From IMG/VR virus record IMGVR_UViG_3300025727_000782, positions 1 through 64,000 of that record: 64,000 nucleotides of DNA. One strand, written 5' to 3'. The notes beneath the pieces were generated by a model that saw nothing but the letters and a program-made list of their open reading frames with translations, had not been told where the DNA came from and ran no database searches. The position numbers were made by a program, and so were the translations under genes. Positions 969 to 5,172 of this stretch are shown here, piece by piece (the first letter of the stretch is position 1; every line of letters starts with the position of its first letter). Origin of the DNA: a virus.

Positions 969-1271
969 ATGTTAAGACCGATAGGTGCAAGAGTAGTAGT
1001 TGAACACAGAGAACGACAAGAAAAAACAGAGAGTGGAATTATAATACCAGATACAGCAAGAGAAGATGGATTACCAGACATAGGAACAATAGTTGCATGT
1101 GGTAAGGGTTCGGTAAGTCATATGACAGGAGAAAGAATACCAATGGAAGTTAGTGTTGGTGATGATATTTACTATGGTAGATTTCAGGCACAAGAACTTG
1201 AGTATAAAGGTAAGAAATATTTGATACTTGGTGAACAAGATATTATAGCAGTGATAGAGGAAGAGGAGTAG
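969..1271 (+). CDS. groES: Co-chaperonin GroES (Cpn10)
   Basis: LRPIGARVVV, KTESGIIIPDTA mobile loop, VSVGDDIYY, YLILGEQDIIAVI. Confidence 0.95.
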   Translation: MLRPIGARVVVEHRERQEKTESGIIIPDTAREDGLPDIGTIVACGKGSVSHMTGERIPMEVSVGDDIYYGRFQAQELEYKGKKYLILGEQDIIAVIEEEE

Positions 1272-1328
1272 AGATGGTTGAAATGACAGTTTTTATGGGT
1301 GTAGTAATAATATTCCACTTGTTTATTA

Positions 1329-1496
1329 ATGGATAAAGATTTAACAAAAAAATCTGATTTTGAATCAATAGAAAAATTCATAACAGATGTTAAGAGTATT
1401 GATATATTAAAAAGAGAGTTAGCTAAAACACCGATTGATTATGATAACATCGGGCCAATACCAAAAAAAAGATTTGAAAGAAAAACTAAAAAATGA
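1329..1496 (+). CDS. Hypothetical protein (55 aa), ATGA-coupled to the ORF at 1493
   Basis: Read by hand: MDKDLTKKSDFESIEKF...RKTKK*; its TGA overlaps the next ATG. Confidence 0.5.
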   Translation: MDKDLTKKSDFESIEKFITDVKSIDILKRELAKTPIDYDNIGPIPKKRFERKTKK

Positions 1497-1624
1497 TTTC
1501 TAAAGATAATTTAAAAAACAAATTAGAAAAATTGGAGTTGTTAATTGATAAGACTCAACCTGATGAATCAGATAAAGAACAATTATTTCAACAACATCAA
1601 ATAGATAATTGTGATAACGGTTAG
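1493..1624 (+). pseudogene. 5' part (42 codons) of a resident phage gene interrupted by the cassette array
   Basis: ATG 1493 reads MISKDNLKNKLEKLELL...QIDNCDN; the AAC at 1616-1618 is in frame and joins in frame to ATT at 4614. Confidence 0.7.
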
Positions 1625-1750
1625 TATATGAGTAGTGGCAGATAGAAAGCACCTACTTATCGTAAAGCAAAAAGTGAATAGATAAACAGAAACTTAAAAT
1701 TAAACAATAACCTGCCATTACTTATATACATTGTTATATACTGTATTGGC
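1612..1750. repeat. attC-like site 1
   Basis: TGATAAC-ggtta-GTATATGAGTAGTGGCAG (1624-1641) ... CTGCCATTACTTATATAC (1712-1729)-att-GTTATATACTGTATTGGC; 18-bp stem with two G.T pairs on the + strand. Confidence 0.8.
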
Positions 1751-1769
1751 GACTTAAAAAGCACAGACC

Positions 1770-2360
1770 TTGAAAAAATACAATATAATTTATGCAGACC
1801 CTGCTTGGAAGTTTGGAAGTAGATTAGCGAATGGAAATGATAAAAACGGAATAGTAAATTTAAAGCAAGTTAAAATTGGTGATAATTATACCGTAATGAC
1901 AACCGATGAAATTTGCAAAATGCCTGTAAAAAATATGACTGCTGATGATGCTATTCTTTTTTTATGGACAACCGATGCTCACTTGGAAGAAGCAATGAAA
2001 GTAATAAACGCTTGGGGTTTTAAATATAAAACGATTGGTTTTACTTGGTTAAAAAAAGAAAAAAGTGGTGTTCAAAGTTGCTATGTAGGTTTTTGGACGA
2101 CTAAATGTGGCGAAATATGTCTATTAGCAACAAAAGGCAAAATGAGTAAATATTTAAAAAAACGAAATGTAAGGCAATTAGTAGAAGCGGTAAGAGGTAG
2201 GCATTCTGAAAAACCAAACGAAGTAAGAAAAAGAATAGTTGAAATGTTTGGAAATGATATTCCAAAAACAGAACTATTTGCAAGAGAAAATTTTGACGGT
2301 TGGGATGCGTGGGGCAATGAAGTTGAAGACAGTATAGACCTAAGCCAATATTGTATATAA
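1770..2360 (+). CDS. MT-A70 family N6-adenine methyltransferase
   Basis: IIYADPAW (DPPW-like motif IV), LFLWTT, AWGFKYKT, HSEKP, ELFAR, GWDAWGNE; TTG start uncertain. Confidence 0.9.
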   Translation: MKKYNIIYADPAWKFGSRLANGNDKNGIVNLKQVKIGDNYTVMTTDEICKMPVKNMTADDAILFLWTTDAHLEEAMKVINAWGFKYKTIGFTWLKKEKSGVQSCYVGFWTTKCGEICLLATKGKMSKYLKKRNVRQLVEAVRGRHSEKPNEVRKRIVEMFGNDIPKTELFARENFDGWDAWGNEVEDSIDLSQYCI

Positions 2361-2497
2361 CGGAATGCAAATAAGAACAGTAAAATTATGAAAGAAAAAA
2401 TATTAAAAATAGCTGACAAATTACGCAACAATGAAATAACAACAGAGGATGCAGAAACCCTTTTATTGTTTTTATTTGGTGTTGTACACTGTATTGC
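2344..2497. repeat. attC-like site 2
   Basis: GCCAATATTGTATATAAC-ggaatg-CAAATAAGAACAGTAAAA (2368-2385) ... TTTTATTGTTTTTATTTG (2461-2478)-gt-GTTGTACACTGTATTGC; two G.T pairs on the + strand. Confidence 0.8.
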
Positions 2498-2507
2498 GAT
2501 TAAATAA
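2388..2507 (+). CDS. 39-aa ORF encoded inside attC-like site 2
   Basis: MKEKILKIADKLRNNEITTEDAETLLLFLFGVVHCIAIK*, starts in the hairpin loop after an A-rich leader and reads through the GTT at 2481. Confidence 0.45.
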   Translation: MKEKILKIADKLRNNEITTEDAETLLLFLFGVVHCIAIK

Positions 2508-2524
2508 ACTAAAACTTTAATTAA

Positions 2525-3568
2525 ATGACGAAACATAGTAATAATATTTTTTTGAGCGATGGCAAAATGGCTGACGATAGGAAGACAAATAACCTATTGT
2601 GGTTTGGTAACTGCTTGGAAGAAATGAAACGAATACCAAGTAAAAGTATTGACCTTATTTGTTGTGATTTACCTTATGGAACGACTGCTTGTAGTTGGGA
2701 TACAATAATACCATTTGAAAAACTTTGGAAAGAGTACAAGCGAATTATAAAAGATAAAGGTGTTATAGTATTATTTGGTTCTGAACCATTCTCTACGCTT
2801 TTAAGAGCAAGTAATTTGGATTGGTATAAATACGATTGGATTTGGGAAAAGAATAATGCAGGAAACTTTCAATTGGTAAATTACCAACCTTTAAAAGTAC
2901 ACGAAAATATTTCTGTATTTTACAATGAAACACCTAATCTTCAATTTTCTGAAATTATGAAAAGCAATATGGAACGACTTAACTTAAAACAAATTGACGT
3001 TTCAAGATTGCAATTATCTAAAAATGGGAACATAACAGGCTGGGTCGCAAATAAATTAAATGGTTCACAACTACCAACAAAAGAGCAATGGTTTAAAATA
3101 TGTGATTTATTTGGAATAGAGGATAATTATAATGAAATACTAAACTCTGTAAAAAGTGTTACTTACAACTTGGATTTACAAGATACAGATATTAAATGTA
3201 GTAATAAGGGGAAAGCAGGAAGTTTAGGTCATTTATCATCTGAAAGCAAAAGAGAAACTTATAACCAAACAAAAACAGGCTATCCAAAAAGTATATTAAA
3301 ATACAATAGAGAAAATGATTACCACACAACTCAAAAACCATTAGGATTGATAAAGTTTTTTATTGAAACTTACTCCAATAAAGGGGAAGTGGTTTTAGAT
3401 AACACTTGCGGAAGTGATACAACAGGAATAGCAAGTTTTGAACTTGGTAGAAATAGCATAAGTATTGAAAACGATTTAGATATTTACAAACTTGCTAAAA
3501 AAAGAAGGGAAGAAAAAAATATTATTGCGGTTGATATGCACGAAACTTTAATTGATGCACAGACGTAG
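2525..3568 (+). CDS. Beta-class N6A/N4C DNA methyltransferase with central HTH-like insert
   Basis: DLPY motif IV N-terminal, HTTQKP, VVLDNTCGSDTTG motif I C-terminal. Confidence 0.88.
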   Translation: MTKHSNNIFLSDGKMADDRKTNNLLWFGNCLEEMKRIPSKSIDLICCDLPYGTTACSWDTIIPFEKLWKEYKRIIKDKGVIVLFGSEPFSTLLRASNLDWYKYDWIWEKNNAGNFQLVNYQPLKVHENISVFYNETPNLQFSEIMKSNMERLNLKQIDVSRLQLSKNGNITGWVANKLNGSQLPTKEQWFKICDLFGIEDNYNEILNSVKSVTYNLDLQDTDIKCSNKGKAGSLGHLSSESKRETYNQTKTGYPKSILKYNRENDYHTTQKPLGLIKFFIETYSNKGEVVLDNTCGSDTTGIASFELGRNSISIENDLDIYKLAKKRREEKNIIAVDMHETLIDAQT

Positions 3569-3646
3569 CAATATTGTGTACAACGTTAAGGGTATGGTGT
3601 CGGTTGCTTTTCGCAACTGCACCATAACCATTGTTGTGCATAGTGC
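3568..3646. repeat. attC-like site 3
   Basis: GCAATATTGTGTACAAC-gttaa-GGGTATGGTGTCGGTTGC-ttttc-GCAACTGCACCATAACC-att-GTTGTGCATAGTGC; one bulged T, one G.T, one G/A mismatch. Confidence 0.85.
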
Positions 3647-3673
3647 GGATTATTAACAGAAAAACTAAATAGA

Positions 3674-4600
3674 ATGAAATTATACAAAGGAGATTGCTTG
3701 ATAGAAAGTGATAAAATAGAAAGTGGAAGCGTTGATTTAATATTAACTGATTTGCCTTATGGAACGGTTAAAGATATTAAAAATGTAAATCATGGAATGA
3801 GTGGAAAATGTGATTGGGATGTTGTAATTGACACAAACGAAATTTATAAAATAGCAAATAGAATATTGAGAAAGGATGGTAAAATCATTTTGTTTGCTCA
3901 ACAACCATTTACAAATGAATTAATAAATAAAGCTATTGAAAATATACCTTTTAATTATAGTATGATTTGGGAAAAAGACCACTTTGCAAATGCTTTGACT
4001 GCTAAGAAAGCACCTCTAAATTACTATGAAGATGTTTTAGTTTTTAGTAAAGACTATGAAAAGGGAAAAAATATAAAACCAACAAATCCTGTTTATGATT
4101 ATCTAAAAGGTTGCAAAATTGAAAGCGGAATAACTACAACTGAATTTAATTATAAATATTGTGAGTATTCAGGCAAAGAAAAAAACAAGCATAGAAGTTT
4201 GGTTGCAAGATATTGGGAAACATCACAATTTTTAGTACCTACAAAAGAAATATATGAAAACGTTTTGCAACCCACTGGATTTTTTAAATTACCTTATGAA
4301 GAAATGATAAAAATGAATACTTATAAAGGTTCTATTTTTAATTTATGGGAAGGTAAAAAATACAAAAGCAATATTTTAAAATACAAAAAAGATTATGATG
4401 GACACCACCCGACACAAAAGCCTATTTTATTGTTAGAAGATTTGATTAAAACCTTTAGTAATGAAAATGATTTAGTAGTGGATTTAACTATGGGTAGTGG
4501 AAGTACTGGTGTAGCTTGTAAAAACACCAATAGAGATTTTATAGGTATTGAGATGAATGATGAATACTATTATATTGCTTGTAAAAGAGTAGGATTGTAG
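3674..4600 (+). CDS. Beta-class N6A/N4C DNA methyltransferase
   Basis: ILTDLPY, HPTQKP, VVDLTMGSGSTG, FIGIE. Confidence 0.92.
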   Translation: MKLYKGDCLIESDKIESGSVDLILTDLPYGTVKDIKNVNHGMSGKCDWDVVIDTNEIYKIANRILRKDGKIILFAQQPFTNELINKAIENIPFNYSMIWEKDHFANALTAKKAPLNYYEDVLVFSKDYEKGKNIKPTNPVYDYLKGCKIESGITTTEFNYKYCEYSGKEKNKHRSLVARYWETSQFLVPTKEIYENVLQPTGFFKLPYEEMIKMNTYKGSIFNLWEGKKYKSNILKYKKDYDGHHPTQKPILLLEDLIKTFSNENDLVVDLTMGSGSTGVACKNTNRDFIGIEMNDEYYYIACKRVGL

Positions 4601-4604
4601 TATT

Positions 4605-4946
4605 ATGCACAACATTAGATATGTTGATAATTTAAAGAATCAGCTGAATTTAACTTTAGATGAAAGAGAACATTTAATTTACATCATGAGAACTTCAAAC
4701 AAAGTTTGGAAGATGAGAAATAAAATGTTAGATGGAGATTGGAACTTAGAAGATGTTAAGTTAGATGATATGGAAAAAGAATTAAGAACTCTTTTACCTA
4801 ATAATAAGATAGGTGCCATTAAACATTATAGACAAGTTATGATAGACGAATTTGGAAAACAAGTTTCTCTTAGAGATTCGAAAGAACGAATAGATAATCT
4901 CTGCAGAGAAATGACTTACGAACAAGGTTTAATAATAAACCACTAA
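4605..4946 (+). CDS. 3' part of the interrupted resident gene; C-terminus resembles the ribosomal L7/L12 C-terminal fold
   Basis: ATG lies inside the cassette arm (ATG CAC AAC); KIGAIKHYRQV...SLRDSKERID resembles the KIxAIKxxRx...LxEAKxxVD pattern. Confidence 0.55.
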   Translation: MHNIRYVDNLKNQLNLTLDEREHLIYIMRTSNKVWKMRNKMLDGDWNLEDVKLDDMEKELRTLLPNNKIGAIKHYRQVMIDEFGKQVSLRDSKERIDNLCREMTYEQGLIINH

Positions 4947-4962
4947 ACAAGGAGTACAGGTT

Positions 4963-5172
4963 ATGTATTTTGAAACACAAGTAATATTTACAGAAGAAAT
5001 CCCAACAAAGAATGGAGTACGAGAAAAGAAAACTCGTAGAGCATTTTTAGTTGAGTGTGATTCGGTAAGTGTAGCAGAGTCAAAGGTAAATGGATTGTTA
5101 AAAGATTCACCATATCCCTTTGAAGTTAAAGTAGCAAAAGAATCTAAGATTGTAGAGGTAATTGATGCCTAA
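4963..5172 (+). CDS. DUF4494-like small protein
   Basis: MYFETQV...KKTRRAFLVECDSVSVAESKV...ESKIVEV resembles DUF4494; AGGAG upstream. Confidence 0.55.
   Translation: MYFETQVIFTEEIPTKNGVREKKTRRAFLVECDSVSVAESKVNGLLKDSPYPFEVKVAKESKIVEVIDA

Follow-up and report, generated by a model that had tools for sequence, protein, structure and literature searches.

Three DNA methyltransferase genes of a marine phage, each lying between two arms that are complementary to one another, raise the question of what kind of element carries them and which DNA strand its hairpins serve. The genes are found in a stretch of 64,000 nucleotides (positions 1 to 64,000 of the IMG/VR virus record IMGVR_UViG_3300025727_000782; hereafter the window), in which positions 1619-4613 consist of three units, each made of a spacer hairpin and a DNA methyltransferase gene between its own covarying arms. 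An initial annotation of the window had compared the arms to the attC sites of integrons and proposed that their wobble pairs favour folding of the + strand, the genes being antisense to the canonical attC orientation. Our analysis indicates that the window probably contains an orphan array of three cassettes, which belongs to an integron-like system for the exchange of genes among Bacteroidota phages and acts by the mechanism proposed below.

A three-unit insert in a phage gene

We asked whether the array was acquired as one piece. Results showed that it is a 2995-bp insert, covering exactly window positions 1619-4613, which is absent from two close relatives, the viral contigs L064 and L065, whose sequences are 88-98% identical to the flanks of the insert. 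In the alignment of these relatives to the window, the empty site reads ...GTGATAAC before the point of insertion and ATTAGAT... after it. The insert opens with a spacer (S0) and closes with the AAC of the third right arm; AAC is present at both junctions, and the position of the break is ambiguous within those 3 bases. The insertion splits a resident gene, as an uninterrupted open reading frame (ORF) of 152 aa in L064 corresponds to the 43-aa and 113-aa ORFs of the window joined together. The 43-aa fragment ends in ...CDN, followed by a G and a stop codon contributed by the insert, and an ATG at 4605, inside the third right arm, has become the start of the downstream half of the gene. The insert lies immediately 3' of the AAC (1616-1618) of a pseudo-site, R0, similar to the consensus of right arms, ATTGT-N4-AAC. 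On the antisense strand, the same insert takes the classical form TT...G and is inserted between G and TTATCAC. The features of the locus, all on the + strand, are the following:

1493-1624, + strand: 5' fragment of the split resident gene (43 aa), part of the continuous 152-aa ORF in L064
1603-1618, + strand: target pseudo-site R0 (ATAATTGTGATAAC), from the empty-site alignment and the collected right arms
1619-1732, + strand: spacer S0, a bulge-free 18-bp hairpin (1624-1641/1712-1729) with two G.T pairs and a 70-nt loop
1733-2361, + strand: cassette 1, arms 1733-1750 and 2344-2361
2362-2480, + strand: spacer S1, hairpin 2368-2385/2461-2478 with two G.T pairs
2481-3584, + strand: cassette 2, arms 2481-2497 and 3568-3584
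3585-3632, + strand: spacer S2, a compact hairpin at 3590-3628
3633-4613, + strand: cassette 3, arms at about 3633-3648 and about 4598-4613
4605-4946, + strand: 3' fragment of the split resident gene (113 aa), from the continuous ORF of the relatives

Left arms have the anatomy GTT-N6-N-G-T... and right arms ...A-T-T-N6'-AAC. The three gene-flanking arm pairs and the three local spacer hairpins make six stems, all at the positions given by the initial annotation. Cassette 1 encodes an MT-A70 DNA methyltransferase (1770-2360; PF05063, 9.6e-26) whose stop codon is the TAA of the right arm's TAAC, and cassettes 2 and 3 encode N6/N4 DNA methyltransferases (2525-3568, PF01555, and 3674-4600, respectively). 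The cassette 3 gene is 84% identical in nucleotide sequence to gp028 of Cellulophaga phage phi10:1, whose copy is without arms. In the loop of S1, an ATG (2388) opens a 39-aa ORF that crosses the GTT of the second left arm and ends at 2507, stopping 18 nt 5' of the ATG of the cassette 2 methyltransferase. Altogether the window contains four attC-like sites, and no integrase was found across the 77-kb record, which itself represents about 27% of the genome.

Other kinds of insert were also considered. A group I or group II intron was rejected, as no permitted boundary gives a U before the 5' splice site plus a terminal G, and for a group II intron the insert does not begin with GUGYG. An Rfam scan of window positions 1300-5000 at E up to 10 returned chance snoRNA-like matches only, with no ribozyme and no attC. 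A terminal-inverted-repeat transposon or miniature inverted-repeat transposable element was rejected as well, considering the lack of target-site duplication at six junctions, the hypervariable N6 and a unit that starts with a spacer outside the repeats.

A conserved G.T pair on the coding strand

The six stems of the window contain, on the + strand, nine to ten G.T and zero A.C mismatches, which reproduces the observation of the initial annotation that its nine tolerated mismatches were all G.T on this strand. The same annotation had noticed that cassettes 1 and 2 share T/T and then G.T at arm positions 10-11 despite covarying arms; this is indeed the case in both cassettes, as arm positions 4 and 7 covary between them (A-T/T-A vs G-C/C-G). 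The composition of the + strand has to be considered here, with G>C, A>T and a GC skew of +0.1 to +0.36, and chance inverted repeats of the same window show 14 G.T vs 11 A.C. Against this chance-repeat baseline, nine G.T out of nine has a P of about 0.006, a count that taken alone is suggestive only. The decisive evidence for the strand bias is given by family-level counts and not by the window alone.

Family loci were retrieved via their methyltransferase proteins. Among them we found dozens of cassettes of 160-2600 nt, often arrayed, and the members include the Polaribacter phage P12002L and contigs binned into metagenome-assembled genomes. A single arm-pattern scan of the sequence collection returned 56 loci, 54 of them chance matches and two real. 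In a first census, 107 loci were oriented by the methyltransferase gene and nothing was required of positions 10-11. At position 11, 35 unique arm pairs had G in the 5' arm and T in the 3' arm vs 1 with the mirror image, with about 2 in the shuffled controls for the arm-pair scan. A second census, independent of the first, used 83 further loci anchored on a recombinase described below, and gave 150 G.T vs 5 mirror images at position 11, and 95 G.T vs 31 A.C outside this position. We asked whether the bias would disappear in these larger sets, and in both of them it held. The longest ORF is located on the G.T strand in 70 of 72 cassettes of the first set and in 138 of 150 of the second. A lone P12002L cassette (L169 14622-15197), between the tail genes gp23 and gp25, has its annotated gene gp24 opposite to the G.T strand and is one of only two exceptions.

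We also analyzed the covariation of the arms over homologous sites, a check that the initial annotation had proposed. Searching with the motifs only, 37 pairs of left and right arms were found with perfectly complementary N6, where 0.47 were expected; as controls, arms in reversed order and the antisense strand yielded 2 pairs each. The 35 cassettes of the first census contain 30 different N6 sequences, and the 83-locus set contains 83. Because these 30 and 83 distinct N6 each pair with their own partner, the arms are under selection for structure, in agreement with the previous interpretation of the compensatory changes. The common arm comprises nine perfect pairs, a position 10 that is paired or T/T and a position 11 with G opposite T, beyond which three to six further pairs are formed. 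At the core of the strand bias stands a single conserved G.T, that of arm position 11, and all three cassettes of the window carry these family arms, with the G.T of position 11 on the gene strand.

Folding energies were computed for both strands, as DNA and as RNA, as the initial annotation had suggested. The + strand folds better than the - strand in every site comparison. Random 120-nt windows of the phage genome favour the + strand as well, by 3.7 kcal/mol on average and in 77% of windows, and family spacer hairpins favour it by 3.0 kcal/mol (14 of 19), that is, no more than random windows. Therefore, the predicted order of the two strands was observed throughout, but it does not distinguish the sites from equally biased random windows of the genome: the energy advantage of the + strand is an effect of the genome-wide G>C skew, energy alone proves nothing, and wobble-driven folding energy turned out to be by itself a weak argument for a strand. 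Compared with shuffled sequences, site 3 (S2 with its flanking arms) gave z scores as DNA of -5.4 on the + strand and -2.6 on the - strand and, as RNA, of -5.9 and -4.2; for site 1 (S0) as RNA, the values were -3.5 on + and -2.7 on -.

The strand bias could in principle reflect base composition or a mutation bias, namely the G>C of the coding strand, acting on ordinary or transposon inverted repeats with no structural selection at all. Consistent with this idea, the folding asymmetry across the genome is as large as at the sites, and chance repeats also contain more G.T than A.C (14 vs 11). A compositional origin does not explain, however, a bias that is position-specific (35:1 and 150:5) and flanked by fully covarying pairs. 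As to transposon repeats, target-site duplications are absent, the unit starts with a spacer and not with an inverted repeat, and the hypervariable N6 would be intolerable to a transposase that reads sequence; a search for Y1 transposases in array-bearing phages found none. We consider that this explanation can practically be set aside.

Unit boundaries, recombinase and polarity

We asked where the exchanged unit begins and ends. Cassette 2 with the same arms recurs in two unrelated contexts (L031 and L035), and homology ends at the AAC. One spacer-plus-gene unit is found behind three different upstream right arms in L091, L092 and L093, where the breaks are exactly at AAC on both sides and different spacers follow. 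In high-identity comparisons, right ends of homology fell 16 times at an offset of 0 to +2 from AAC, and left ends were located at the preceding AAC or near GTT. The unit is spacer plus gene, from AAC to AAC, and besides the exchange of units there is some spacer exchange or rapid spacer turnover. The initial annotation had placed the crossover at the AAC downstream of each gene; the empty site of L064 and L065, the breaks of the unit shared by L091-L093 and the boundaries of L224 (see below) all agree with this position.

Both AAC and GTT are invariant at every boundary, and almost every arm has a purine as its fourth base. Spacers of the family belong to size classes of about 41-59, 80-83 and 109-120 nt and are hairpins sharing an AGT/ATT motif with its G.T, a pattern that S0, S1 and S2 all fit. 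Many of the long ones possess a ribosome-binding site (RBS) and an ATG in the loop, with an ORF running through GTT into the cassette, and the TAA of the arm's TAAC often serves as stop codon in family cassettes. In L071, L104 and L076, spacer ORFs are the true 5' ends of the cassette genes.

A candidate enzyme was found beside related arrays. In contig G003 (loci L170 and L223), a tyrosine recombinase of 277 aa starts 52 nt after the last cassette. A second locus, L224, has a recombinase gene that is 99.4% identical and flanks that are 97-99% identical to those of the G003 contig, and its cassettes, between two AAC boundaries, are entirely different. The 277-aa enzyme scored 194 bits against the XerA/integron-integrase model (cut-off 220) and 157 bits against TIGR02249 (cut-off 265). 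The latter match is in two pieces, which is consistent with a lack of the IntI-specific insertion, and by these scores the enzyme is Xer-like and not an integron integrase. More than 1000 relatives of this recombinase are present in metagenomes. An alignment-based scan of viral contigs provided 54 recombinase loci with at least 1.5 kb upstream, and in 42 of them phage-type cassettes lie directly upstream of the recombinase. Of the cassettes around the enzyme, 166 were found upstream and 0 downstream, and 5 are on the opposite strand. Often, the last cassette ends 52-53 nt before the recombinase ATG and is then followed by a conserved AAC-N3-TATATGTA. The TATATG of this recombinase-proximal motif also opens spacer S0 of the window, whose start, AAC-GGTTAG-TATATG, matches the motif found after the last recombinase-adjacent cassette of related arrays. 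When the antisense strand is read as "top", recombinase gene, attachment site and array show the classical divergent layout; the recombinase then diverges like intI and the cassette genes alone are flipped.

As the array of the window sits inside a gene and in a record without recombinase, it is an orphan, recombinase-less copy. An all-against-all protein comparison of five array-bearing genomes found the cargo methyltransferases as the sole shared proteins. There is no universal phage-borne enzyme, and orphan arrays need a recombinase in trans.

In classical integrons, the bottom, non-coding strand is known to fold and recombine. As a Bacteroidota baseline for the polarity of the phage cassettes, we took 26 integrons with a genuine IntI beside them (loci L197-L222) and used the side that carries the array. 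TIGR02249 was above cut-off in 113 of 401 Bacteroidota species genomes (G009-G408); in complete genomes of RefSeq, IntegronFinder 2.0 had reported only a single complete integron for the Bacteroidetes (PMC9024848). The Bacteroidota arrays share one conserved attC, AAC-AAGCGTTTCAAGCGG...CCGCTTAAACGCCGGGTC-GTTA, with a conserved inner part of 76 or 110-115 nt, and their cassettes have complementary gene-flanking ends (GTTA.../...TAAC) of 10-12 bp. Of 183 cassettes, 168 have the ORF on the top strand and 15 on the other, and arm positions 11-18 of the top strand contain 204 A.C vs 88 G.T. In true integrons, it is the non-coding bottom strand that is rich in wobble pairs, against compositional expectation, and this validates the rule that the wobble-rich strand is the folded one. 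Integrons have the wobble opposite to the genes, whereas in the phage cassettes ORF and G.T share a strand, in 70/72 and 138/150 cases; therefore, phage cassette genes are reversed relative to typical integron cassettes, and the proposed antisense orientation of the genes is confirmed. The break on the coding strand falls at the AAC, the 5' foot of the hairpin, which is the place where IntI cuts the folded bottom strand. We also built a covariance model from 34 canonical Bacteroidota attC sites; its scores were 70-100 bits for integrons, compared with about 15 bits (E about 1) for three phage sites, all antisense, and these phage matches are too weak to decide polarity.

Experimental data are available for P12002L. 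A paper of 2023 reported in this phage an attC cluster without integrase, assayed two of its sites with IntI1 and, by HattCI/Infernal, called opposite directions for the two (PMC9892861). By primer mapping, attC1 is a typical internal site composed of right arm, spacer and left arm (TGCTAAC, spacer, GTTAGGC), and the "bottom" strand of attC2 is the gene-sense strand, starting with the right arm of the last cassette, GCCTAAC. Recombination with attI1 was obtained for this gene-sense strand of attC2, at the expected triplet, and not for its opposite strand (PMC9892861). Beyond this report of a cluster of attC sites lacking an integrase (CALIN), we found no published description or name of the array family. 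The experiment is a strand-specific assay of the kind that the initial annotation had proposed; obtained with a heterologous enzyme and at a single site, its result is consistent with the coding strand as the reacting one. The initial annotation had suggested that this strand, as single-stranded DNA (ssDNA) or as transcript, is the folded substrate; the junction geometry and P12002L attC2 fit the proposal, and from these we infer which strand reacts.

The opposite choice of strand has also to be weighed, considering that the polarity of classical attC sites is set by unpaired bases and not by stability. The antisense strand might react if the enzyme read the A.C mismatch at position 11 and a 3'-arm bulge like the extrahelical bases of attC. 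In several spacers, bulges do lie in the antisense 3' arm, as in classical bottom strands, and the three attC-model matches were all antisense (reading as "top"), at about 15 bits that decide nothing. If the antisense strand reacted, however, the junction would be located at the 3'-arm GTT and not at the 5' AAC of IntI-type cleavage, the folded strand of true integrons is the wobble-rich one, and the P12002L site recombined via its gene-sense strand. A reaction of the antisense strand seems to us very improbable.

Proposed mechanism and known systems

We propose that a unit is excised as a circle, in which right arm, spacer and left arm would become contiguous and fold into one long imperfect attC-like hairpin. 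This hairpin would recombine at its 5' foot, at or within the AAC, with another AAC-ending site; in the phage of the window, the target would have been a look-alike sequence inside a phage gene. The coding strand would play the part of the classical non-coding "bottom" strand, because the wobble pairs (the G.T of position 11 and the AGT/ATT of the spacers) lie there, and ssDNA of this strand would be the substrate of the enzyme. The likely enzyme is the 277-aa Xer-like tyrosine recombinase, which may do the cutting in these arrays, provided in trans or encoded in the missing part of the genome. We use "attC" for the phage sites as an analogy, because the partner enzyme in related arrays is Xer-like and not IntI. 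When folded as DNA, the predicted circle junctions of the three units gave -20.2, -17.3 and -22.9 kcal/mol vs -10.1, -9.6 and -20.0 in the array context, and for all three the + strand folded better than the - strand. The same hairpins probably act in mRNA too, because the folded strand is also the transcript, with start codons in spacer loops and stops in TAAC.

A role in mRNA might even be the only reason for the bias: G.U pairs could be selected in the transcript, for insulation of cistrons, display of start codons or protection or processing of the message, with recombination occurring on double-stranded DNA or on either strand. The wobble-rich strand is in fact the transcribed sense strand in 70/72 and 138/150 cassettes, spacer loops with RBS and ATG read through GTT, TAAC provides stop codons, and good folding is obtained for sites 1 and 3 as RNA (z -3.5 and -5.9) but not for site 1 as DNA. 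A marine metatranscriptome contig (window 1554-1869) also extends without a break from the split gene into methyltransferase 1, across R0, S0 and the first left arm; coming from an RNA library, it is compatible with read-through transcription, with DNA carry-over possible. Selection in the transcript leaves unexplained, however, why units break exactly at the stem foot and why every arm is complementary to its own partner, which a circular intermediate needs. Moreover, true integrons show a like bias on the non-transcribed strand, where wobble tracks DNA folding. The transcript and DNA roles are compatible with each other, and we consider it unlikely that the transcript takes the place of the folded DNA strand.

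Several observations weigh against the integron-like mechanism that we favour. As described above, the overall energy difference between + and - strands is a genome-wide composition effect; furthermore, sites 1 and 2, when folded as ssDNA, are not more stable than shuffled sequences (z -0.6 and +0.1). The phage sites lack conserved extrahelical bases, and where a bulge does occur, in some of the spacers only, it sits in the coding strand's 5' arm, which differs from the classical bottom strand. P12002L attC1 gave no verified recombinants with IntI1 on either strand (PMC9892861). No tyrosine recombinase (PF00589) was found in the 77-kb record, about 27% of the genome, nor in the complete array-bearing phages P12002L, G001, G007 and G008. 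In public data, a search limited to the contigs of four of the 20 runs that contain the stretch found no excised circle, no empty site and no joints at cassette boundaries, a result that is no evidence either way.

How do these arrays compare with known systems? Like classical integrons, they are arrays of one-gene units whose sites end in ...AAC and begin with GTT..., and the cassette ends are complementary because the crossover separates them. The inner part of the hairpin is of similar size (76 or 110-115 nt in integrons vs about 82 and 117 nt in phage), and both systems share wobble on one strand, variable content beside a tyrosine recombinase and secondary insertion at AAC/GTT. Unlike in integrons, the phage genes are on the wobble-rich strand, the arms have the invariant G.T of position 11 and AGT/ATT instead of conserved extrahelical bases, and the sequence of the sites is unrelated to the conserved Bacteroidota attC. 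The phage recombinase, of 277 aa and Xer-like, is co-directional with the cassette genes and placed at the downstream end of the array. Reversed genes as such are not new, as toxin-antitoxin cassettes are the textbook case of reverse-oriented integron cassettes. In the chromosomal integrons of our Bacteroidota sample, cassettes with genes antisense to attC are a minority (15/183), whereas in the phage family reversal is the rule (70/72 and 138/150).

The methyltransferase cluster of P12002L belongs to the family and is likewise an orphan array in a lytic phage. The paper describing this CALIN took its sites as ordinary attC "with divergent directions" and mentions neither the covarying arms that flank the genes nor the conserved G.T, the reversal of the genes or the Xer-like recombinase (PMC9892861).

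Two other systems share single traits with the phage arrays. In CTX-type phages, a folded single-stranded hairpin is the substrate of an Xer-family enzyme. These phages, as well as the Xer-flanked modules of the pdif type (PMC7399989), resemble our arrays in linking an Xer-family enzyme to mobile modules; they use dif-like 28-nt sites and the host XerC/D, whereas the phage arrays have long covarying hairpins and a dedicated recombinase. The promoter-early stem-loops (PeSL) of T4-type phages shuffle small genes. They are also repeated stem-loops between small accessory phage genes and tied to gene shuffling, but they are conserved direct repeats acting by homologous recombination, whereas in the phage arrays every cassette has arms of its own and breaks occur site-specifically at AAC.

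Integrons are the textbook case of folded single-strand sites, in which genes on the unfolded strand and the special insertion of IntI are taken as the rule. The phage family appears to keep the geometry of the reaction, to flip the genes and to use a plainer, Xer-like enzyme. Tentatively, and with somewhat more doubt than confidence, it may be regarded as a separate class of integrons, with an Xer-type enzyme devoid of the IntI insertion and coding-strand hairpins doubling as start and translation signals of the mRNA. The family would offer a natural experiment on strand choice, in which a conserved G.T replaces the extrahelical bases, and it illustrates how marine phages keep a stock of anti-restriction methyltransferases and exchange them. 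For viral metagenomes it provides an annotation rule, with the G.T of position 11 on the gene strand and unit boundaries at AAC. Orphan arrays can land in genes of unrelated phages, here probably a jumbo phage, as the IMG/VR virus contig of 77,466 bp was judged by CheckV to be only about 27% complete. This large marine phage, with 31% G+C and every gene on the + strand, is unrelated to the other array carriers.

Some further observations concern individual spacers and the surroundings of the array. The first spacer of L224 (4153-4290) contains two T-arm-like motifs of the type GGTTCGA(T/C)TCC, as if a tRNA-like element were present in the loop. In short spacers and in the hairpin after the last cassette, a conserved loop, CGTTTTAATG, is carried on covarying stems; this loop differs from the arm motif and may represent a signal related to a protein or a terminator. 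It was found at the following positions:

L035, about 4500-4545: CGTTTTAATG loop
L003, 3640-3670 and 4545-4570: CGTTTTAATG loops
L076, 4850-4890: CGTTTTAATG loop

Just 5' of the array, at window 969-1271, we found a gene for a GroES-like co-chaperonin (Cpn10, 6e-26). The small gene 5' of the split gene (window 1345-1489) is replaced in the relatives by unrelated sequence (L064 4345-4562), an ordinary mosaicism beside the insertion site.

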